A stretch of DNA of 64,000 nt from a virus. Lineage: Duplodnaviria > Caudoviricetes. The position numbers were made by a program, and so were the translations under genes. The notes below the pieces were generated by a model. That model was not told where the DNA came from. It saw only the letters and a program-made list of their open reading frames with translations, and ran no database searches. The stretch covers positions 1 through 64,000 of IMG/VR virus record IMGVR_UViG_3300027991_000002, one strand, 5' to 3'. Positions 3,001 to 30,062 of the stretch are shown here, in pieces (the stretch's first letter is position 1; each line of letters starts with the position of its first letter).

Positions 3001-3213
3001 ATGACAAAAGAAGCAGGTAAATTTTTTGCCGATTACTTTCATATAAAAGAAAGCGAAGCAGTTGACTGTAATCACATGACACTTGATTGCATGGACGAGT
3101 TCGATAAACAAGAAGCTATTGAATTTGCAGAGTGGATTCTTAGTAAAAGATATGTTCCTGAAATTTCAGCAGGAGATTTATACAATGAGTTCCTTAAACA
3201 GAAACAGAAATGA
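3001..3213 (+). CDS. Hypothetical protein (70 aa)
   Basis: ORF in a tightly packed operon. Confidence 0.55.
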   Translation: MTKEAGKFFADYFHIKESEAVDCNHMTLDCMDEFDKQEAIEFAEWILSKRYVPEISAGDLYNEFLKQKQK

Positions 3214-3464
3214 CAAACAACATGAAAAAGATTTGCAGAAATTGTAAACAGCCCGATTATAAATGTAGTTGTGGTGAAACTGATTTGGTTGATGCCGCGT
3301 TTGCGGTTGCCGAAGGAATTATCGAAGCGGAAATCATTTCTTCGCTGTTCGATTCATTCACATCTTCGAGCGACTCGTCAAGTTCATCCTCTGATTCTTC
3401 GTCAGGATTTGACGGCTTTGGTGGCGGGGATTTTGGCGGAGGCGGTGCGGACGGAAGTTGGTAA
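3210..3464 (+). CDS. Hypothetical protein with Cys-rich N-terminus and Ser/Gly-rich tail
   Basis: CRNCKQPDYKCSC; ends GFDGFGGGDFGGGGADGSW. Confidence 0.6.
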   Translation: MTNNMKKICRNCKQPDYKCSCGETDLVDAAFAVAEGIIEAEIISSLFDSFTSSSDSSSSSSDSSSGFDGFGGGDFGGGGADGSW

Positions 3465-21283: not shown

Positions 21284-22315
21284 ATGCAAGCAACAGAAAC
21301 GAATGCCCTTGTTCAAGTAGTTGAAACAAGCGGACTCGAACAAACTAAAGGGCAAATCCTTTTAGGAATGTTCACCCCATACTTTAACCGTATGGCAGAA
21401 ATTGAGGGTAAAATTAATTTGCTCAATAAAGAAAATCCATCTCCTCAAGATGTGAGCGCGGCAAGAGATATTCGTATCTCTCTGATGAAAGAGGTTCGCA
21501 AGCCAGCCGAGCGCGTGAAGGATGAAGGAAAAAAGTCAATCCTTATTGAAGGTCGCCTGTATGACAATCTATACGGAGTGATTAACAACACCTCCAAAGG
21601 GCTTGAAATGCAATGTGAGCAAATTGAAAAGTTCGCTGAACTTCGAGATTTAAAAATGCGTGAAGAAAGAAAGGTTAAACGAGTAGAGCAACTTTCTCCC
21701 TATGTTCCTGATATTTCATTTTACGATTTACTCAATATGCCTGACGATGCTTTTAACTCATTACTTGCTACTCAAAAAGCAGGACAAGAGGCATTGTTAG
21801 CCCAACAAAAAAGAGAAGAAGAAGAAAGAATCGCAAAGGAAAAAGCTGATGCCGAAGCGCGTGAAGCACAGAGGGTAGAAAATGAACGGCTTAAAGCAGA
21901 GGCGGCAGAAAAGGAAAGGCAACTTGCCGAAGAACGCGCAAAAGTAGAAGCGGAGCGTAAAGCCGCAGAAGAAAAGTTACGCAAGGAAAGAGCCGAAGCC
22001 GATGCTAAAATAAAAGCCGCGCAGGAAGCGCAAGCCAAGGTTGAGGCAGAATTAAAAGCCAAAGCCGATGCAGAAGAAAAAGCGAAGCGTGAAGCCGAAG
22101 CAAAAGCAGCAGCCGAACTAAAAGCACAACAAGCCGCAGAAAAGAAAGCCGCGAAAGCACCTGACAAAGAAAAACTAAATAAATGGATTTCTGATTTTGA
22201 CTTGCAACCGCTTCTCACATTAAAAGATGCTGGCGCAAAACAAATTGAAGAAGATATAGTCAGAAAGTTTTCTGCATTTAAAACATGGGCATTGCAACAA
22301 ATCGAAACGCTATGA
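21284..22315 (+). CDS. Coiled-coil protein with an E/A/K/R-rich segment (343 aa)
   Basis: Long helical low-complexity region. Confidence 0.6.
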   Translation: MQATETNALVQVVETSGLEQTKGQILLGMFTPYFNRMAEIEGKINLLNKENPSPQDVSAARDIRISLMKEVRKPAERVKDEGKKSILIEGRLYDNLYGVINNTSKGLEMQCEQIEKFAELRDLKMREERKVKRVEQLSPYVPDISFYDLLNMPDDAFNSLLATQKAGQEALLAQQKREEEERIAKEKADAEAREAQRVENERLKAEAAEKERQLAEERAKVEAERKAAEEKLRKERAEADAKIKAAQEAQAKVEAELKAKADAEEKAKREAEAKAAAELKAQQAAEKKAAKAPDKEKLNKWISDFDLQPLLTLKDAGAKQIEEDIVRKFSAFKTWALQQIETL

Positions 22316-23322
22316 ACACAAAAGATTTTGAAGAAGTAAAAACCGTTTGGACGGATGACATTATCATTCACAAACAGCCGTATACCGTTTACAGAATAAA
22401 AGTTGGCGGAGGAAGAATTTACTATACGCTGGATGCAGACAATAATCCTACGTTCTATATTTCGCTCACCACCCTTACCAAGCATACGCTCCCAACGGGA
22501 GAACAATTAATAAAATGGATTGCTCAAACAGGGTACTATGAGTCTAAGAGATATATGAACGAAAGAGCAAACTACGGTACTTTAATGCACATGGCAATCG
22601 GACAATTCCTTATCTTAAAGTTTTGGAACTTTGAACAGTCCGAAGATTTTATTACCAACACTATTCAAGATGGGGCTATTGATGCTATTGAACCCGATAA
22701 GTATAATGATGACCTGAATCGTGACGTTGCCGCATTCGCTCAATTTTGTGTAGAGCATAAAGTAAGACCATTGGCAATAGAACTTGTACTTGTATCTAAT
22801 AAAGGGTACGCTACTTTAATTGACCTTGTGTGCAGAATGACTATTGAGGAGAAAGGGTACTTTGGAGAAACGTACAAGTCAGGAGTACAAAAAGGAAATC
22901 CGAAAGAATCAAAACGCGAAAAAGAAATCACCGCGCTGTTAAACTTTAAATCAGGCAAGAAAGGATTTTATGAGGAGAACGAAATTCAACTTGAGTTTGA
23001 AAAGAAATTGTTTGAAGAAAATTATCCTGAAATAAAAATTGACAAGATATTTAATTGGTCGCCTAAAGATTGGAACAACTCACCAACATATAATCTGAAA
23101 GACCAATCTGATTCATTGAACAAAGAAAAGGCAGATGCCCTACTTGCTATTGCCGCGATTGAGCTTATGAAAAAAACTCCGATGGAAAGAAAGTTAGTAG
23201 GCACACTTTCGCTTGGTCAAACTCCGCAAATTGAAGACAAAACTATTTATGATATTGTCAGGGAGCGAGCCGCGAAAAGGCACGTAGAGAATGTTCCGAA
23301 GAAAGAAGAAATGGCAATTTGA
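22312..23322 (+). CDS. PD-(D/E)XK-like exonuclease/recombination protein
   Basis: YYISLTT..ANYGTLMHMAI..AIELVL..YATLIDLVC..LNFKSG. Confidence 0.55.
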   Translation: MNTKDFEEVKTVWTDDIIIHKQPYTVYRIKVGGGRIYYTLDADNNPTFYISLTTLTKHTLPTGEQLIKWIAQTGYYESKRYMNERANYGTLMHMAIGQFLILKFWNFEQSEDFITNTIQDGAIDAIEPDKYNDDLNRDVAAFAQFCVEHKVRPLAIELVLVSNKGYATLIDLVCRMTIEEKGYFGETYKSGVQKGNPKESKREKEITALLNFKSGKKGFYEENEIQLEFEKKLFEENYPEIKIDKIFNWSPKDWNNSPTYNLKDQSDSLNKEKADALLAIAAIELMKKTPMERKLVGTLSLGQTPQIEDKTIYDIVRERAAKRHVENVPKKEEMAI

Positions 23323-23355
23323 AACAGTTGAATAGCCCCTCATGTAAACCAATAG

Positions 23356-23445
23356 ATAGAACGAAGAAGCACTAACGAATGTAAAATTTTTGCCATTGAA
23401 AACAGACAGATTAAAAATTTTATTTCGCTTTGTGCTGTGTTATGC
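23356..23445 (-). mobile_element. attC-like site 11 (90 bp, terminal)
   Basis: ATAGAAC..agcactaacgaatgtaaaattttt / aaaaattttatttcgctttgtgct..GTTATGC. Confidence 0.7.
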
Positions 23446-23531
23446 GAGTGCGCATGGATTTTATGCGGTGGGGTTCGTTCTTTTTTCTGTTTTCAATTTT
23501 TAGCGTTGGCATTAATTAAACAATCATAAAT

Positions 23532-23948
23532 ATGAAAAGGCAACAAACAATAGTATCGGAAAAAGAAATCCTGAAACTCGGTGGAGTTGATAAGGGATAT
23601 AAATTTGAACGCACCAAGCATGAACATGGGGATAGAGAAAAAATATTCTATAAGCAATGGAAGAAGGAAAATAAGCAGTTACGATGGCTAAACTTCGGGC
23701 AGGGAATATTGCAGGATTTATTTGCCATTACTGGTAATAATCCTTTCAACTTTATGAGGGGAGGATTGATAGGTTGGAAATTAATAATCAACAGGAGGGA
23801 TAGATACATTGTGGCAACAGTGATGCAATGGCTCGGAACAAATTGCGGTTGGTGCTGGCTTGAAGAAACACTTAGGAAGTGCGGGTACAGATTAGAAAAA
23901 ATTGAGCGGGAGGAAAAAATTGAAAACAGAAAAAAGAATGTCGCATAA
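23532..23948 (+). CDS. Cassette gene, hypothetical (138 aa)
   Basis: Stop TAA lies inside the GCATAAC core box. Confidence 0.65.
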   Translation: MKRQQTIVSEKEILKLGGVDKGYKFERTKHEHGDREKIFYKQWKKENKQLRWLNFGQGILQDLFAITGNNPFNFMRGGLIGWKLIINRRDRYIVATVMQWLGTNCGWCWLEETLRKCGYRLEKIEREEKIENRKKNVA

Positions 23949-24000
23949 CGGCAAACGCTTTATGCCGTTATTTTCAATGGCATTAAAGCGTATGTTCTAT
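23943..24000 (-). mobile_element. attC-like site 10 (58 bp)
   Basis: Minus strand: ATAGAAC-ATA-CGCTTTAATGCC-loop-GGCATAAAGCG-TTTGCC-GTTATGC. Confidence 0.85.
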
Positions 24001-24025
24001 TTAGGTTTTTAAAATTCTTTGAGCG

Positions 24026-24238
24026 ATGGCAAACAAAATATGCAGAATAACAATATTAGCTTTCATGTTCGGAGATATACCGAAAGGAATTGAGAACGGA
24101 TATGATGATTGGGACTTAGAAAACGGAATACAATATTGTGAAGAATTGATGCGCTATGAAGGAATGACACATGAACCGATGGATAAGTTTGAGTTGAAGA
24201 AATATATTGAATGGGCAAAACAGAAATTGAAAGAGTGA
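24026..24238 (+). CDS. Cassette gene, hypothetical (70 aa)
   Basis: ORF lies between matching cassette-end IRs. Confidence 0.6.
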   Translation: MANKICRITILAFMFGDIPKGIENGYDDWDLENGIQYCEELMRYEGMTHEPMDKFELKKYIEWAKQKLKE

Positions 24239-24261
24239 GTGTGGCAATTTTAAAAACTTGA

Positions 24262-24598
24262 ATAGAACGTTGCTCGGATTGAAGAATGTAAATTAAAATT
24301 ATAGCGATGCACAAGAACAGAACAGCAAACGGATTAAGGTTGCAAGAGCAACATAACCAACGTTACAAGAAAATGTTGATAGGAAAAAAAGCGAAGGACG
24401 GGCGAACGGTTATTAACACAGAATGGATTGGAAACAGCACATACGGATGTGTTCGATTATTTTTCGATAATCAAACCGATGATTTATGTAGTAGTACAAT
24501 GGGATTTAAACCGACAAGAGAGGATTTTACAGACAGGTACGGAATTACATGGTGAGCGATGGCAATTTTAATTTATTTCTTTCAATCTGGTGTTAGTT
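24262..24598 (-). mobile_element. attC-like site 9 (337 bp, gene in loop)
   Basis: ATAGAAC..ggattgaagaatgtaaattaaaatt / aattttaatttatttctttcaatct..GTTAGTT. Confidence 0.8.
24307..24555 (+). CDS. Cassette gene inside the attC loop, hypothetical (82 aa)
   Basis: ORF bracketed by AGCGATG direct repeats. Confidence 0.6.
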   Translation: MHKNRTANGLRLQEQHNQRYKKMLIGKKAKDGRTVINTEWIGNSTYGCVRLFFDNQTDDLCSSTMGFKPTREDFTDRYGITW

Positions 24599-24628
24599 TT
24601 AGTTTTTAACAGGCAAACAAAATAGAAA

Positions 24629-24820
24629 ATGGAAAAGTTATCAGACAAAGCAGAAAAGAGAATTAAGAAAATCTATCCTGATGCGAGGGCAGAGAGGGAT
24701 GGCGCAATGTTCTTTATAGTAACTGACTTACTTAAAGGAGAGGACAGAACTTTAGGTGGTGGATTTAGCAGAGATGGCGCGTGGTGTAGCGCGGGTTGCT
24801 CTGTGCCTGTTAAAAATTGA
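24629..24820 (+). CDS. Cassette gene, hypothetical (63 aa)
   Basis: Stop codon abuts the AACTAAC core box. Confidence 0.6.
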   Translation: MEKLSDKAEKRIKKIYPDARAERDGAMFFIVTDLLKGEDRTLGGGFSRDGAWCSAGCSVPVKN

Positions 24821-25166
24821 AACTAACGAGGAAGGATTTGTGAAGTAAAATTTTCGATTAAAAACTATAACCTTTAAAAACAGAAAAGCGATGGAAGTAA
24901 AAGGATTTTATATCAGAAGCAATGGCGACCCTTCGGTTGGTATATTCTCTGCTCAATGGGAATTGCGAAATGACTTCGTATTTGACGACATAGAAGATTT
25001 GGAATATTTCAGGTCGGGGCTTGCGCGTTTGCTCGGTGAGCATTGCGGGGAGAGGTGCTATGTGCAAACTTTTGAGGAGTGGGCTGAACAAATTAAATTA
25101 GAAGAAAAAATGTGTAGTGACGCACAGAAGGAAGAAAATTTTATTTCATCAAATCCTGTGTTGTCG
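24821..25166 (-). mobile_element. attC-like site 8 (346 bp)
   Basis: AACTAAC..aggatttgtgaagtaaaatt / aattttatttcatcaaatcct..GTTGTCG. Confidence 0.8.
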
Positions 25167-25253
25167 GATAGTTTGCCTTTTGATTTAGCAAGTCATCCTG
25201 ACACAGAAGCTGACGGACATGTATTCTGCGGTAAATGTGGAAAAGAAAAGTGA
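24891..25253 (+). CDS. Cassette gene, hypothetical (120 aa); starts in the attC loop and reads through the arm
   Basis: ORF track; ends 10 nt before CGACAAC. Confidence 0.6.
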   Translation: MEVKGFYIRSNGDPSVGIFSAQWELRNDFVFDDIEDLEYFRSGLARLLGEHCGERCYVQTFEEWAEQIKLEEKMCSDAQKEENFISSNPVLSDSLPFDLASHPDTEADGHVFCGKCGKEK

Positions 25254-25263
25254 GGCAAATTTC

Positions 25264-25795
25264 CGACAACGGGAAGGGGATTGAAGAATGTATTTTAATT
25301 TTTTAGCATGGGCAAACTAATGGTAACACCAATATTCCAAAACGAAGCGTTCGCGTTCATCGAACAACACCACAGGCATCATAGAAAGCCAGTAGGCAGC
25401 GTGTTTCAGATTGCAGTGAGCGAGGGTGAGCGTGTGGCAGGGGTGGCGGTTGTTGGCAGACCAAACGGACGAAAACAGCAGGACGGATTTACATTAGAAG
25501 TTACACGGCTATGCACAGACGGAACTAAAAATGCCTGCTCAATGCTTTATGCAGCTTGCTGGAGAGCAGCCAAAGAATTAGGTTATCGAAAACTGATTAC
25601 ATACATACTGAACACTGAGCCGGGGACATCATTAAAAGCAAGCGGGTGGAGATGCGTTGGGGAGCGCGGTGGCGGGAGTTGGAACGTACCGAGCCGCCCC
25701 CGTGTTGACAAACATCCGTTGCAGAAAAAATTGTTATTTGAAATCGAGTAGCGCGATGGGAAAATTAAAATATTTCTTTCAATCCCATGTTGTTG
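25264..25795 (-). mobile_element. attC-like site 7 (532 bp, gene in loop)
   Basis: CGACAAC..gggattgaagaatgtattttaatttt / aaaattaaaatatttctttcaatccc..GTTGTTG. Confidence 0.8.
25308..25751 (+). CDS. XF1762-family / Mom-like GNAT-fold protein (cassette gene in attC loop)
   Basis: FIEQHHRHH..GVAVVGRP..LEVTRLCTDG..NACSMLYAACWRAAKELGYRKLITY..SLKASGW. Confidence 0.75.
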   Translation: MGKLMVTPIFQNEAFAFIEQHHRHHRKPVGSVFQIAVSEGERVAGVAVVGRPNGRKQQDGFTLEVTRLCTDGTKNACSMLYAACWRAAKELGYRKLITYILNTEPGTSLKASGWRCVGERGGGSWNVPSRPRVDKHPLQKKLLFEIE

Positions 25796-25828
25796 GCAGC
25801 GTAGCTGAGTTTGCTTTTCGCAAATTGC

Positions 25829-26038
25829 CAACAACGTCACGCAGGATTTATGAAGGATTTTTTACGATTTTAAAACCAACAAATATGAAAACACCAAAAG
25901 AAATTTTAGAAGGAAAACAAGCATTCAAAGATTTCCTGTATAAAGCACCCGACTGGATTAGGGAAGACATTATTGCAGCAATGATGGAATACGCATTGGA
26001 GCAAGTAAAAAATCTTTCATTAAATCCTGTTGTTGTTG
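25829..26038 (-). mobile_element. attC-like site 6 (210 bp)
   Basis: CAACAAC..caggatttatgaaggattttttac / gtaaaaaatctttcattaaatcctg..GTTGTTG. Confidence 0.8.
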
Positions 26039-26145
26039 GGCGCAGCGAACAGTTAAAATCTGACTTGTACAAATTCAGGGATATGTATTGTCAAAATATT
26101 GACTTAGCTACCATAGATGAATATGTTGACGGCTTAGGATTTTAA
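25887..26145 (+). CDS. Cassette gene, hypothetical (MKTPKEILEG..)
   Basis: ATG 25887 follows an AT-rich leader; the upstream extension in the track crosses cassette boundaries and was rejected. Confidence 0.55.
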
Positions 26146-26149
26146 TTGC

Positions 26150-26280
26150 CAACAACGTTCATCGGATTTATTCTCGTTGCATTAAATGATAAAAACTTAA
26201 ACCATAAATAAAACTCATTATGAAAAACAAACCTACGATTAAAAAGAAAGCCAGCAATGGAATGAAATCCGTTGTTCATG
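26150..26280 (-). mobile_element. attC-like site 5 (131 bp)
   Basis: CAACAAC..cggatttattctcgttgc / gcaatggaatgaaatccg..GTTCATG. Confidence 0.75.
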
Positions 26281-26540
26281 GCAGTGCGGATAAATGGTCA
26301 AAAATTAAGTGGAGCAAAAAAGTTTTGCAAAAAGCGCAGGAAAATCATATCTGGTTGAACGCTTTTGATTGCGTAAGACCGACACCTGCATTCTGCGAAA
26401 GTCTTGGTAGGTCAATCATCAATAAATTACGGGATGAAGAAAATTTAATCCCGATGAGTGGCATTACATCGGATGTTGAAGCGATGCGAGAGATTGCAAA
26501 ACTTACCCCGATAATGTACATGAGCATTAACAAGAGCTAA
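26220..26540 (+). CDS. Cassette gene, hypothetical (106 aa)
   Basis: Starts in the attC loop and ends before CATGAAC. Confidence 0.6.
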   Translation: MKNKPTIKKKASNGMKSVVHGSADKWSKIKWSKKVLQKAQENHIWLNAFDCVRPTPAFCESLGRSIINKLRDEENLIPMSGITSDVEAMREIAKLTPIMYMSINKS

Positions 26541-26554
26541 GATGTGAGCATTGC

Positions 26555-26611
26555 CATGAACGGTAGAGATTGTTGCCGTTAATTTCAATGGCATACAATC
26601 TAATGTTATCT
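26555..26611 (-). mobile_element. attC-like site 4 (57 bp)
   Basis: Minus strand: AGATAAC-ATTA-GATTGTATGCC-loop-GGCAACAATC-TCTACC-GTTCATG. Confidence 0.85.
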
Positions 26612-26643
26612 GCCGTTTTGGATTAACTAAATAAATATAAATT

Positions 26644-26949
26644 ATGAAAGCAAAAGAGTATGCACAAAGGGTAACAAGTACAGAAAATGTTCAAGATGCA
26701 ATGACTGAGCTTGGCAAATGCGGAAAAGATTTTTTCAACGAATTTATCGCAATGAGAAAATCACGTAACATAAAAACCGATGATGGATTATTAACGCTGG
26801 TGAAAGAGTTCGATAATAAATTCAGAACATTTTCTGTACTTGTGGATTCACACTACAAAGGGATGGTTAAACCAAATGGATTCATTGAACTGCTTCGGGA
26901 GTTTGTTCCTGTACTTGCTAATGAATATGAAAGGAAAAATGGCAGATAA
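26644..26949 (+). CDS. Cassette gene, hypothetical (101 aa)
   Basis: Stop TAA lies inside the AGATAAC core box. Confidence 0.65.
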   Translation: MKAKEYAQRVTSTENVQDAMTELGKCGKDFFNEFIAMRKSRNIKTDDGLLTLVKEFDNKFRTFSVLVDSHYKGMVKPNGFIELLREFVPVLANEYERKNGR

Positions 26950-27778
26950 CGGTTACGGCTTTAAGCAGTGGGGATTATTAGCACAAATGTTCAATCGAAG
27001 CGATAAAAAAAATAAAGAAAAATTTTTAGGGAGGCATTTTTAATTTAATCATTTAATCATAAATAAAACAAAATGGAAAAAGTAACAAACACAGCAAAGA
27101 ACCCACGACTTGAATGGTTGATGGGTGGAAATCCTAATGCTATTGAAGCACAGGAAGTGCAAGGACAAAAGGAACTTGTGAAATCATCACAACTACCAGC
27201 GAAAGTAAATTCGCCAAGAGGAGTGAACATTGAGGAGCAATACGCCTTGATGGGAATAAAAGTAATTGGCAAAACCAAAGGAGATGAATTATTCCTTGAT
27301 GTGGAATTGCCAAATGGGTGGAAGAAGGAAGCAACCGACCATTCAATGTGGAATAAATTGGTTGATGATAAAGGAAGGGAAAGGGCAAGTTTCTTTTACA
27401 AAGCTGCATTTTATGACCGAGATGCTTTTGTGAATTTTAGCACACGGTATAATTGGAATGCCAATTACGAGGATAAGGACAATGTGAGCTACTTTGTAAA
27501 AGATAACTCCATAGGTGAAATTGTATTTGAAACAGAAAAGATGAGTAAAGATGTAAAACAGCCGAACTACTTTAAAATACAGGATGAGTTACAAAACCAA
27601 TGTAAACAATTTCTGAAAGACAAGTTCCCTGAACACGAAAACATAAATGCTTATTGGAATTAAATCATTTAATCATTAAGAGCGTGGGCAAAAATTTTTC
27701 TTTATTTTTTTTCGTTCATATCAGCACGAACTTAAATATGGAGCGATACACCCCATTGCTTTAAAGCCGATGTTATGC
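26944..27778 (-). mobile_element. attC-like site 3 (835 bp, gene in loop)
   Basis: AGATAAC..cggctttaagcagtgggg / ccccattgctttaaagccg..GTTATGC, plus inner arms aaaaaaataaagaaaaattttt / aaaaatttttctttattttttt. Confidence 0.8.
27073..27663 (+). CDS. Cassette gene in attC loop, conserved phage hypothetical (196 aa)
   Basis: GRERASFFYKAAFYDRDAF motif; flanked by a 14-bp direct repeat. Confidence 0.65.
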   Translation: MEKVTNTAKNPRLEWLMGGNPNAIEAQEVQGQKELVKSSQLPAKVNSPRGVNIEEQYALMGIKVIGKTKGDELFLDVELPNGWKKEATDHSMWNKLVDDKGRERASFFYKAAFYDRDAFVNFSTRYNWNANYEDKDNVSYFVKDNSIGEIVFETEKMSKDVKQPNYFKIQDELQNQCKQFLKDKFPEHENINAYWN

Positions 27779-27940
27779 GAAGTTGCCAATACCAAATTCA
27801 AAAAGACAAAAAACTCATTGGCAATTTTGCATAACGTTCGAGGATAAACGAAGTGCATGAGTAACCGAAAAATTAACTGAACAGCAAGTAAGAAATTTTA
27901 ATAAAAATATTTTTAGGGAGGGAATTTAAAAAACAACATT

Positions 27941-28099
27941 ATGAAAATAAACTTTGATGTGAACCTGCCGGATTGGTTTGTAATAACCGGACTTACTGTT
28001 TTTACAGTTTGGATGATTCTTGACATAATAAAAAACTGGCTCAAACTTATCATTTGGAATTATGAGAGGAAAATTAAAAAAATGGAAAACGAAAAGTAA
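27941..28099 (+). CDS. Small membrane protein (52 aa; not in the ORF track)
   Basis: MKINFDVNLPDWFVITGLTVFTVWMILDII..; TAATG coupling to the next gene. Confidence 0.5.
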   Translation: MKINFDVNLPDWFVITGLTVFTVWMILDIIKNWLKLIIWNYERKIKKMENEK

Positions 28100-28524
28100 T
28101 GGCAATCTTAAACTATACAACCTCCATTGATTCTGAAAAGACAATCGGAGAGATTCAAAAATGCTTAGTGAAGCACGGGGCAATGAAAATCACCACTGAT
28201 TATCAGAACGGGATTCCATGCGCTGTTACTTTCTGCCTAATCATCAAAGAGAATATGGTTGGGTTTGCATTGCCAGCAAATTATTCAGGCGTTCTCAGGG
28301 CAATGAAGCGAGATGGAAAAGTTCCGCGCTCAAAATGCACAGAGGAGCAGGCAATAAAAGTTTCATGGAGAATAGTGAAAGACTGGGTTGAAGCGCAGAT
28401 GGCAATAGTTGAAGCTGAACTTGCACAGATGGCGGAAGTGTTTTTGCCGTATGCAGTTACAAAGAATGGAAACACTCTTTGGAAACAGATGGAAGGAAAC
28501 GGAATGTTATTACTTAACTCTTAA
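28099..28524 (+). CDS. Cassette gene in attC loop, conserved phage hypothetical (141 aa)
   Basis: NYTTSID..WRIVKDWVEAQMA..EVFLPY. Confidence 0.65.
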   Translation: MAILNYTTSIDSEKTIGEIQKCLVKHGAMKITTDYQNGIPCAVTFCLIIKENMVGFALPANYSGVLRAMKRDGKVPRSKCTEEQAIKVSWRIVKDWVEAQMAIVEAELAQMAEVFLPYAVTKNGNTLWKQMEGNGMLLLNS

Positions 28525-28692
28525 CCTTTTTACAATTTGAAAAATTGTGATGAGCGTAGGCAAAATATTTTTATTAAAATTTCTCTAACCGTAATTGACA
28601 GTACAGATGGAAGCATTTCGTTTATCCTTTGTTATCAGATGAAAAATTATCCCTTTTGAGCGCGGGATGCTCGTAATTTAATAATTACAAAA

Positions 28693-28890
28693 ATGAAAAC
28701 ATGGGAATATAAAATTAATAGCGTAAATGAATATGATGCTTTTGAAAATGTTGGCGGCTCGGTTGCCGAAAGAATTTTAGATGGAGCGTCAAAAGACGGA
28801 TGGGAATTAGTGTCTGTTGTCGGAATAAACACAATGGTAATTTTTTACTTTAAAAGAGAATTAAATAATGGAGGTGCGGTGGCGGGATAA
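28693..28890 (+). CDS. DUF4177-like protein (cassette gene)
   Basis: WEYKI..GWELVSVV..FYFKRE. Confidence 0.6.
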   Translation: MKTWEYKINSVNEYDAFENVGGSVAERILDGASKDGWELVSVVGINTMVIFYFKRELNNGGAVAG

Positions 28891-28899
28891 TTTTTTTTC

Positions 28900-29027
28900 T
28901 GATAACGGATGAAGATAAAAGAAGCAGCCCTAAATAGAATGTTCAGCGGGTACGTAACCGATAGGGTAACTGAACTTAGGCAGACCTCCGATTTTGCTCG
29001 GCTGTTTCTTTTTATCTTGTGTTGTGT
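28900..29027 (-). mobile_element. attC-like site 1 (128 bp)
   Basis: TGATAAC..aagataaaagaagcagcc / ggctgtttctttttatctt..GTTGTGT. Confidence 0.8.
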
Positions 29028-29085
29028 GAGAGCATAGGGATTTCAGGCGATGGGCAGTTTTTAACTTAAAATAATTTTAAAGCGT

Positions 29086-29400
29086 ATGGCAAAGATTTAT
29101 TTCAGCAAATACAATGATGAGGAAGTGGCTTATACATTGGACTATTGGAAAACTTACATGGAAGAAAACCTCATTGAAGAAATGACATTGTTTGAAGGCA
29201 AGCGAATGACAGGCGAGGGCTATTTCTATTGTAAAGAATACTTTGAAGTTGGATTAGCGAGAGAGTCATGTGGAAAGATATGCGAGGGATATAAGCCGAA
29301 CAATGGCAAGAATGGCAGATGCAAACATTATGGATATTGCTATGAGCCAACAGATAAAAGGTTGGTGTTGCAAGCGGGCGGAAAAATTATTTTAAGTTAA
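29086..29400 (+). CDS. Cassette gene, Cys-rich hypothetical (104 aa)
   Basis: CKEY..CGKICEGYKP.NGKNGRCKHYGYCY. Confidence 0.6.
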   Translation: MAKIYFSKYNDEEVAYTLDYWKTYMEENLIEEMTLFEGKRMTGEGYFYCKEYFEVGLARESCGKICEGYKPNNGKNGRCKHYGYCYEPTDKRLVLQAGGKIILS

Positions 29401-29407
29401 AAATTTC

Positions 29408-29470
29408 ACACAACAAATATATGTATTTTTCTCTTACAACTATTTGAAACTTAAACCATAACACCATGCA
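29408..29470 (-). mobile_element. Candidate attI site
   Basis: Minus-strand G|TTGTGT core matches cassette 1 but has no attC arms; lies just upstream of the int-like gene. Confidence 0.55.
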
Positions 29471-29492
29471 AAATTTTTTGTATATTTAAAAC

Positions 29493-30062
29493 ATGAATAA
29501 CGCTCTCATTTATGCTTTAGCTTGTCCGGAAACAGGTCAAATAAAATATGTTGGCAAAACAAATCATTCATTAAAAAGAAGATTGCAAAATCATATAAAT
29601 AACAAGAGGTCAAAAAGCAGGTGCTCTTTTTGGATTAGAGAATTAAAAAGTAAAAATATCTATCCTGAAATAATATTACTTGAAACAGTAATTGATGGGC
29701 TATGGAGATTTAGAGAATCAGAATGGATAAAAAACTTTGGCAGAGATAATTTATTAAATGAAAACGCAGGCGGTGGAGGAATGGGGACATCTAAGATAAA
29801 TTATGTTTTTTCTTTTTCCGAATCTCTTTCACAATATTCTGAAAACACTAAGAGAAACTATTTAAGCATAGTAAAAATATTCTTACATGAACATGGATGC
29901 GTTTCAACATCAGCAGTTATTATTAATAAAAAAATGATTGAAAATTATATGATGAGATTTAAGAATAGACACAGTTATAATCAAACCTTGTCTGCATTAA
30001 AAAAATTCTTTTTATTTTTAGGTCAACCAAGAAAATTAAATGCAATTAAATATTGGTATTAA
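29493..30062 (+). CDS. GIY-YIG nuclease fused to an integron-type integrase N-terminal (SAM-like) domain; no catalytic recombinase domain
   Basis: LIYALACPETGQIKYVGKT..RL..H..E (GIY-YIG); YSENTKRNYLSIVKIFL..SYNQTLSALKKFF..QPRK (IntI-like core-binding domain). Confidence 0.7.
   Translation: MNNALIYALACPETGQIKYVGKTNHSLKRRLQNHINNKRSKSRCSFWIRELKSKNIYPEIILLETVIDGLWRFRESEWIKNFGRDNLLNENAGGGGMGTSKINYVFSFSESLSQYSENTKRNYLSIVKIFLHEHGCVSTSAVIINKKMIENYMMRFKNRHSYNQTLSALKKFFLFLGQPRKLNAIKYWY

Follow-up and report, generated by a model that had tools for sequence, protein, structure and literature searches.

The region from 23356 to 29414 of the window (the whole stretch of 64,000 nt analysed here, which forms the first 64 kb of IMGVR_UViG_3300027991_000002, a 75,207-bp virus record with terminal repeats) appears to be an array of eleven mobile units, belonging to a recombination system that resembles integrons, works through hairpins and occurs across Bacteroidota phages. 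The probability of this reading is put at roughly 0.6. The array contains about 14 small open reading frames (ORFs), all of them on the + strand. The boundary between neighbouring units very likely lies at the + strand step AA|C, and with the same high confidence each unit has the order [site][gene], as opposed to the [gene][site] order of classical cassettes. The array is a variant of the integron principle and stands outside the integron family proper. Its cargo is inverted relative to classical integrons, as a first-pass annotation of the window had proposed: whereas classical cassette ORFs lie on the top strand and point away from attI, all ORFs of the array lie on the bottom-like strand and run toward an orphan box and a recombinase gene.

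Unit boundaries in the array

On the coding strand, the first base of a unit is the C of an xxxxxAA|C box, and its last two bases are the AA of the box that follows. An imperfect hairpin of its own comes first, the loop of which sometimes encloses a whole gene, and a box exactly complementary to its own GTT box forms the end. The GTT boxes match the AAC box that follows them at 7.3 of 8 positions, compared with 4.8 of 8 for their own hairpin partner. All twelve AA|C boundaries that the first-pass annotation had placed in the region are present at their positions. One correction concerns the first site, in which AAC 23360 pairs with GTT 23439 (~90 nt) and not with GTTCGTTC at 23474. The units and the features at both ends of the array are the following.

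23362..23948, +: unit 1; AAC box 23355-23362, arms 23368-23392 and 23412-23436, GTT box 23439-23446 (GTTATGCG, complementary at 8 of 8 positions to the next AAC box, CGCATAAC); ORF 23532-23948, the stop of which is the TAA of that next box
23949..24267, +: unit 2; compact 60-nt site with AAC box 23942-23949, arms 23955-23969 and 23976-23991 (T bulge in the 3′ arm, 8 bp above the base) and GTT box 23994-24001; ORF 24026-24238
24268..24826, +: unit 3; arms 24274-24300 and 24564-24590 around ORF 24307-24555, GTT box 24592-24599; second ORF 24629-24820 past the GTT box
24827..25269, +: unit 4; arms 24833-24855 and 25134-25157, GTT box 25160-25167; ORF 24891-25253 runs through the 3′ arm and the GTT box
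25270..25834, +: unit 5; arms 25277-25304 and 25759-25786 around the Mom-like gene 25308-25751 (matching PF25680 and phrog_1384, E = 1.4e-38); GTT box 25789-25796
25835..26155, +: unit 6; arms 25841-25865 and 26005-26030, GTT box 26032-26039, followed by the motif GCGCAGCGAACAGTT, which is common to the phage loci G001 and L100; ORF 25885-26145 runs through the GTT box
26156..26560, +: unit 7; arms 26163-26180 and 26254-26271, GTT box 26274-26281; ORF 26220-26540 begins in the loop and runs through the box
26561..26949, +: unit 8; compact site with arms 26567-26580 and 26587-26601 and GTT box 26605-26612; ORF 26644-26949, the stop of which is the TAA of the next AAC box
26950..27834, +: unit 9; arms 26956-26988 and 27736-27769 (the pair quoted as an example by the first-pass annotation) around ORF 27073-27663; GTT box 27772-27779, linked to the next AAC box by a hairpin of 19 bp (27772-27835)
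27835..28905, +: unit 10; arms 27840-27856 and 28613-28629, without a bulge, around ORFs 27941-28099 and 28099-28524; GTT box 28631-28638; ORF 28693-28890
28906..29413, +: unit 11; arms 28912-28940 and 28991-29018, GTT box 29021-29028 (GTTGTGTG, complementary at 8 of 8 positions to the terminal box); ORF 29086-29400
29407..29414, +: terminal orphan AAC box, CACACAAC, with no matching arm further on; would join the array to the attI-like side
29414..29492, +: putative attI-like spacer that separates the recombinase gene from the orphan box; AAC and then a TATATA-rich stretch, as in G001 and L089
29493..30062, +: truncated gene with a GIY-YIG and a recombinase core-binding (SAM-like) domain (PF01541 and PF02899); catalytic domain absent
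22285..23322, +: exonuclease gene, the last backbone gene left of the array (phrog_298, E = 2.6e-19), on the same strand as all cargo

Privately matched unit ends show that the units are mobile, not which polarity they have; since a cut in the AAC box and a cut in the GTT box both predict such matching, the complementarity between a GTT box and the next AAC box was left out of the choice of polarity. More telling are the repeated units of G001, a phage genome of 74,657 bp that was found through the loop motif of a compact site and whose DNA is unrelated to that of the window phage except for one site. It contains five identical copies of a strongly structured, non-coding unit of 145 nt, each with different units on both sides and each bounded ..TAA|T...GGGGAA|C. 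The base past the AA belongs to the downstream unit and the base before the AA to the upstream unit. As these flanking bases travel with their own units, the crossover lies within the AA or at its edge, which is consistent with AA|C; the circle junction expected for this unit is GGGGAA joined to TGCGATCC. Homology blocks between other G001 units have the same limits. Between G6 and G8 homology begins exactly at the AAC box, spans the arms and the GTT box and reaches the start codon, and between G2 and G10 it extends from the 3′ arm across the GTT box to the next AAC box, with none beyond.

The ORFs respect the same boundary. In five phages, eleven ORFs run across GTT boxes and none across an AAC box, while five end on the TAA of an AAC box. 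As the first-pass annotation had stated, cuts at AA|C interrupt no ORF in the window, whereas cuts at G|TT split three, the GTT boxes at 25160, 26032 and 26274 lying inside ORFs 24891-25253, 25885-26145 and 26220-26540; two further window ORFs have the TAA of an AAC box as their stop codon. In Polaribacter phage P12002L, the RefSeq gene calls give six genes across GTT boxes, none across AAC boxes and three that stop on the TAA of an AAC box. ORF 26220-26540, for which 85 homologues were found, is a member of a genuine protein family; its conserved domain (residues 29-106) is coded entirely past the GTT box, and its start codon sits in the loop. A [site][gene] unit is therefore self-contained here, whereas a unit cut at G|TT would be left without a start codon.

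The last 26 residues of ORF 24891-25253, coded past the GTT box, represent a widespread C-terminal tail motif of phage proteins. The peptide (L/I)PFDLASHPDTEADGxVFCGKCGKxK ends many unrelated small phage proteins (window 25173-25253; L089 4025-4084; L090-L094). In the window and in L089 its coding stretch lies past a GTT box and ahead of the AAC box that follows, with upstream ORFs reading in. Conservation acts at the protein level, as the DNA copies differ by many silent changes. This tail, which has other N-termini elsewhere, was considered as a sign of exchange at the GTT box and rejected as such: it is a general C-terminal motif with many silent differences, and it mostly occurs without boxes. 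A second conserved stretch, GCG(A/C)AGCGAAC(A/C)GTT, follows GTT boxes in three otherwise unrelated phages (window 26040-26055; L004 1006-1021; L100 8625-8640), where it adjoins different arms and codes for GRSEQ if an ORF reads through.

Strand marks of the recombination sites

All eleven sites of the window (23355-29028) follow one plan on the + strand, namely xxxxxAAC, a spacer of 5-6 nt, an arm, the loop, the other arm, a spacer of 2-3 nt and GTTxxxxx. The geometry was analysed in 23 sites (eleven from the window, ten from G001 and two from L089), the partners of which were found by a stem search from each AAC box. In this set the first base of the 5′ spacer is always G (23 of 23), with a general richness in G (56 G vs 11 C), and the shorter 3′ spacer likewise keeps its length. 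A one-base bulge, nearly always T, is found in the 3′ arm 7-9 bp above the base of the stem in 16 of the 23 sites, and a lone bulge of the 5′ arm at this height in none. Ten of the eleven window sites have a 3′-arm bulge, the site 27833/28631 being bulge-free. The longer left spacer and the extra T on the right arm of the + strand, from which the first-pass annotation had argued, thus hold for the larger set as well. The compact site of unit 8 shares 85% identity with a site of G001 (L004 4906-4960), with compensatory changes in the arms.

DNA folding was compared in 21 sites from the window phage and G001. G:T pairs numbered 35 on the + strand and 3 on the − strand, and the + strand was the more stable one at 20 of the 21 sites, by 2.07 kcal/mol on average (Wilcoxon p = 7e-5). 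The first-pass annotation had taken the wobble bias as a sign of a folding, recombinogenic + strand. The bias itself was confirmed; as independent proof of folding as single-stranded DNA it fails, because the + strand is also the mRNA strand, and G:U pairing in RNA as well as transcription-linked C-to-T change would give an equal bias. For attC sites, the bottom strand that recombines has been described as carrying 5′-AAC in R′ and extrahelical bases on the opposite arm (Nivina et al. 2016; PMC5027507). It has 1.24 vs 0.39 G:T pairs, is 2.12 kcal/mol more stable and is rich in purines (PMC5027507). Judged by this analogy, the + (coding) strand of the array bears every published mark of an attC bottom strand, with four out of four marks in agreement, and since all of them make the + strand bottom-like, the polarity argument of the first-pass annotation is sound as an analogy. 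The + strand is probably also the reacting strand.

At a score of at least 15, the site geometry was found in the 75-kb genome at nine AAC positions (eight distinct sites) on the + strand of the array, once elsewhere on the + strand and once on the − strand. The geometry is thus present beyond chance, and such sites are restricted to the array and its + strand. The R boxes (RYYYAAC/GTTRRRY), the unpaired spacer and the L boxes with an extrahelical base on one arm that define attC are present, with paired boxes and unpaired spacers at 11 of 11 sites; the spacer lengths differ from those of classical attC. The loops are compact or moderate at four window sites (6-50 nt) and measure 263-756 nt at four others, where the arms enclose whole ORFs, while the remaining three have their 3′ arm and GTT box within an ORF. 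Classical attC sites have a length of ~57-141 nt and stand between genes, whereas the loops of 7 of the 11 window sites hold whole or partial ORFs.

The recombinase end and the arrays of other phages

The array is situated at the end of a long rightward gene block and is followed on its right by an ORF of 189 amino acids (29493-30062) and then by leftward late and lysis genes. At its left end the first site is complete. The right end, both in the window and in G001, is an AAC box without arm partner, and a recombinase gene follows on the + strand 65-80 nt further on; orphan AAC boxes also terminate the arrays of L089 and P12002L. Read on the minus strand, the order is a recombinase gene pointing away, an attI-like G|TT and then units that each end in a complete site, which is the classical order. 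Relative to it, the reversal concerns the genes alone. As in classical integrons, the recombinase gene diverges from the minus-strand polarity of the array. By this comparison the equivalent of attI would probably be located at the right end, as a position only. The minus-strand polarity with a crossover in the left-hand AAC box, put forward in the first-pass annotation, is supported by the repeated unit and the homology blocks of G001, the ORF counts, the orphan box, the divergent recombinase gene and a site call by HattCI (see below). The orphan AAC box precedes a TATATA-rich stretch in three phages (window 29415-29430; L004 5624-5637; L089 4112-4128), and the left edge of the G001 array reads TATATAGTAAC. 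In view of these two features, the empty site of the ancestor was perhaps a short palindrome, rich in A and T, around AA|C.

The window ORF 29493-30062 matches PF01541 and PF02899 and thereby shares the GIY-YIG and SAM-like core-binding domains of a fusion family (P0001-P0016). It aligns with residues 1-190 of the 394-residue fusion protein of G001 and with 15 metagenomic homologues; the family alignment shows 28-33% identity and 31 invariant columns. The window ORF ends at residue 189 and has no counterpart to columns 204-380, so that the active-site tyrosine is lacking, and no match to PF00589, the catalytic domain of tyrosine recombinases, was found anywhere in the 75-kb genome. In G001 the gene lies downstream of the array on the same strand and encodes GIY-YIG plus a full tyrosine recombinase, which aligns with XerA and Xer-like structures across the conserved active-site motifs, including HxLRH and the tyrosine. 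Its best scores are to XerA (NF040815, 162 bits, below the family cut-off) and to the structures 4a8e and 5hxy. The additional domain of IntI-type recombinases is missing, as the G001 homologue aligns with VchIntIA (2a3v) in two pieces that skip residues 208-245, and its TIGR02249 score is 131.8 bits against a cut-off of 265. On these alignments, the recombinase is a fusion of GIY-YIG and Xer-like parts that lacks the IntI insert. GIY-YIG matches in 62 viral loci were all stand-alone nucleases, with the exception of G001.

Members of this array family, invariably on the coding strand, are present in at least four other phages, namely G001, L089, L100 and P12002L. A search with the arm pattern returned six new loci plus G001 itself, of which L100 alone has an array. 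An exact match to the loop motif in L002 was rejected as a chance match inside an ORF of an unrelated 354-kb contig. The 145-nt unit of G001 is GC-rich, occurs only in the array and in one orientation (L004 1748-1892, 3187-3331, 3768-3912 and 4765-4909, and the contig ends) and folds as DNA at −47 kcal/mol (z = −6.95). Rfam, which does not include the attC covariance model of IntegronFinder, gave only a chance miRNA-like match on G001 and none for the 145-nt unit, and a scan of the window returned zero matches. As the 104-nt ‘terminal repeat’ of the G001 record falls inside this element, the record ends may be an assembly artefact. In L089 an ORF of 68 amino acids (3086-3292) runs into the first AAC box of the mini-array; read by eye, the start of this ORF resembles the N-terminus of a RuvC-type resolvase. 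As far as can be read from the sequence, this suggests that the left edge of the L089 array cut a backbone gene.

P12002L (L102, NC_028924) has two arrays on the minus strand, 41000-37265 and 32924-29239, with at least 12 sites with matched boxes and a cargo that includes four DNA methyltransferases, a Mom-like gene and an HNH endonuclease. The array of the window shares this type of cargo, the Mom-like DNA modification gene being its only cargo gene with a clear name, whereas P12002L adds the DNA methyltransferases. Clusters of attC sites (CALINs) have already been reported in phages, including P12002L (Qi et al. 2023; PMC9892861), where two sites of this phage are listed with ‘divergent directions’ and without explanation. 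In the IntI1 assay of that study P12002L_attC1 gave zero recombinants, while five other phage sites recombined (one of six failed), and according to its Table S3 the forward primer of the aadA7 control corresponds to the bottom strand (PMC9892861). P12002L_attC1 is a member of the site family described here (AAC-GGCTA-CGGCTAAA-CGG...CCGTTTTAGCC..GTTAGGC). It sits between two methyltransferase genes, and the bottom strand called by HattCI is their coding strand.

That the cargo is expressed by read-through, as the first-pass annotation had suggested, we infer from the direction of the genes, and any statement on a Pc promoter is of the same kind. Promoter and terminator scans, including a Bacteroidetes-type pattern, gave matches at chance level only. 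The motif GnGCGnTGG(C/G)A is nearly confined to the arrays and to their coding strand (window 24021, 24554, 25751, 27680, 28552 and 28874; ten sites within L004 464-5242). It usually stands just past a stop codon and just ahead of a 3′ arm, and sometimes gives an ORF its ATG. The motif may be a signal carried by the units themselves. TAGGGAGG(C/G)A occurs 25-45 nt upstream of several ORFs inside loops (window 27027-27035 and 27914-27922; L004 3438), and ATCATTTAATCAT forms a direct repeat that flanks ORF 27073-27663 on both sides and a different ORF in G001.

Competing explanations, known systems and significance

In the mechanism proposed here, the coding strand would fold as single-stranded DNA and would be cut at AA|C by a tyrosine recombinase from the family of GIY-YIG/Xer-like fusions, of which G001 has an intact member and the window phage a truncated one, and the orphan box beside the recombinase gene would act as the equivalent of attI. 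The cargo would face this end and, instead of depending on a promoter there, would be transcribed from the rightward block of the phage or from motifs within the units. As the window phage lacks the catalytic domain, its array could be moved only by an enzyme acting in trans. Several observations weigh against this picture. Four sites of the geometry set are bulge-free, and the loops of 7 of the 11 window hairpins (73-756 nt) are well beyond those of known attC sites. The bulge rule was established for IntI, whose insert reads the extrahelical bases, and may not carry over to a recombinase without the insert. The same motif past the GTT box, GCGAAGCGAAC, accompanies different arms in three phages, which may reflect long-term exchange near GTT boxes. 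The window phage showed no recombination product, no circle, no empty site and no recent gain or loss. Searches with the exonuclease against viral contigs and metagenomes and with 7.8 kb of DNA against phage records gave no relative with a comparable array for direct comparison, but only 35-40% protein identity and a single short DNA match of 70% identity, to the Mom-like gene; a scan of genome contigs also yielded no relative.

The G:T bias and the greater stability could stem from mRNA structure or from mutation bias. It is conceivable, albeit unlikely, that the AA|C boundaries are real while the strand marks arose from C-to-T change linked to transcription or from the structure of the + sense mRNA (with a role in processing, stability or termination). 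Recombination would then use duplex DNA or either of its strands. Every unit is coded on the + strand, so that G:U pairs could also be selected in RNA, the recombinase is closest to XerA and XerD, which are enzymes of duplex sites, and the bulge-free sites fit this explanation as well. However, the AAC boxes lack a duplex core site, in which two inverted binding sites would flank a centre of 6-8 bp, the pairing of the boxes exists in the folded form only, and conserved unpaired spacers together with a bulge at fixed height are features of a protein-bound hairpin. Still less probable is an explanation without any site-specific recombination, in which the palindromes are terminators or promoter-stem-loop modules that seed homologous or illegitimate recombination and the polarity simply follows transcription. 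The motif GnGCGnTGGc, which is specific to array and strand and stands behind ORFs and ahead of 3′ arms, and the absence of a recombinase from most array-bearing phages would agree with it. Yet the units have only AAC/GTT and a G in common, which is too little for homologous exchange, each of them has a private, perfectly matched pair of end boxes, the five G001 copies have base-exact ends at sites of differing sequence, and a dedicated tyrosine recombinase stands at the end of the G001 array. As to the classical polarity, with + as the top strand, a crossover at the right-hand G|TT and [gene][site] cassettes, it would put the genes in their usual orientation, and since the AAC and GTT boxes are mirror images, the sequence alone permits it at first sight. 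It is nevertheless very improbable: three ORFs of the window and eleven across the five phages would be split, the limits of the repeated unit and of the homology blocks fall at AAC and not at GTT boxes, bulge, G:T bias and stability all point in the opposite direction, and the array ends next to the recombinase gene with an orphan box of the AAC type.

With classical integrons (IntI1, VchIntIA) the array shares the imperfect hairpin with RYYYAAC/GTTRRRY boxes, the unpaired central spacer, an extrahelical base opposite 5′-AAC and the one-strand bias in G:T pairs and stability (PMC5027507). Both have a unit boundary in AA|C and an orphan box that adjoins a divergent recombinase gene. The array differs by its spacers (5-6 vs 2-3 nt, compared with 6 vs 5 in classical attC), by loops of up to 756 nt that hold genes, by perfectly matched 8-nt end boxes, often with a second hairpin, by a recombinase that has a GIY-YIG domain and no IntI insert, and by genes on the bottom-like strand that face the attI-like end. 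This last arrangement has never been seen in mobile or chromosomal integrons (PMC5027507).

The likeness to Xer systems (XerA/XerC/XerD) lies in the recombinase domain, which is nearest to XerA. A folded single strand can serve as an Xer substrate, as in the integration of the CTX phage. Unlike Xer systems, the array has an enzyme that scores below the cut-offs and is fused to GIY-YIG, its sites are not dif-like, and it comprises many units instead of a single integration site. In T4-type phages, small ORFs flanked by repeated stem-loops (PeSL) are shuffled as modules, and this exchange depends on sequence homology between the repeats. The array likewise combines small phage ORFs with repeated stem-loops and modular shuffling, but its units share a core of 3-4 nt only, have base-exact ends and are associated with a tyrosine recombinase.

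A more far-reaching proposal, which we regard as tentative and somewhat less likely than not to hold as a whole, is that of a separate phage-borne hairpin-cassette system parallel to integrons and run by GIY-YIG/Xer-like fusions. The coding strand would be the strand that folds and reacts, excised units would be rod-shaped circles of single-stranded DNA with genes in their end loops, and the system would be a main trade route for anti-defence genes among Bacteroidota phages. If so, excision and capture would be coupled to transcription or phage replication, which expose the coding strand, and the traded anti-defence genes would include methyltransferases and Mom-like enzymes.

The array family is a counter-example to a rule drawn from integrons, according to which bottom-strand selectivity places promoterless genes correctly behind Pc and the opposite orientation is never seen. 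It uncouples the polarity of the sites from the direction of the cargo, two properties that are always joined in bacteria, and it accounts for the ‘divergent’ P12002L site and for the failure of IntI1 there. Search tools tuned to [gene][attC] and to short loops will miss or mis-orient such arrays. The arrays make it possible to test whether strand choice is set by the exposure of phage strands during transcription and replication rather than by the needs of expression, and whether these hairpin marks are also legible to a recombinase that lacks the IntI insert.

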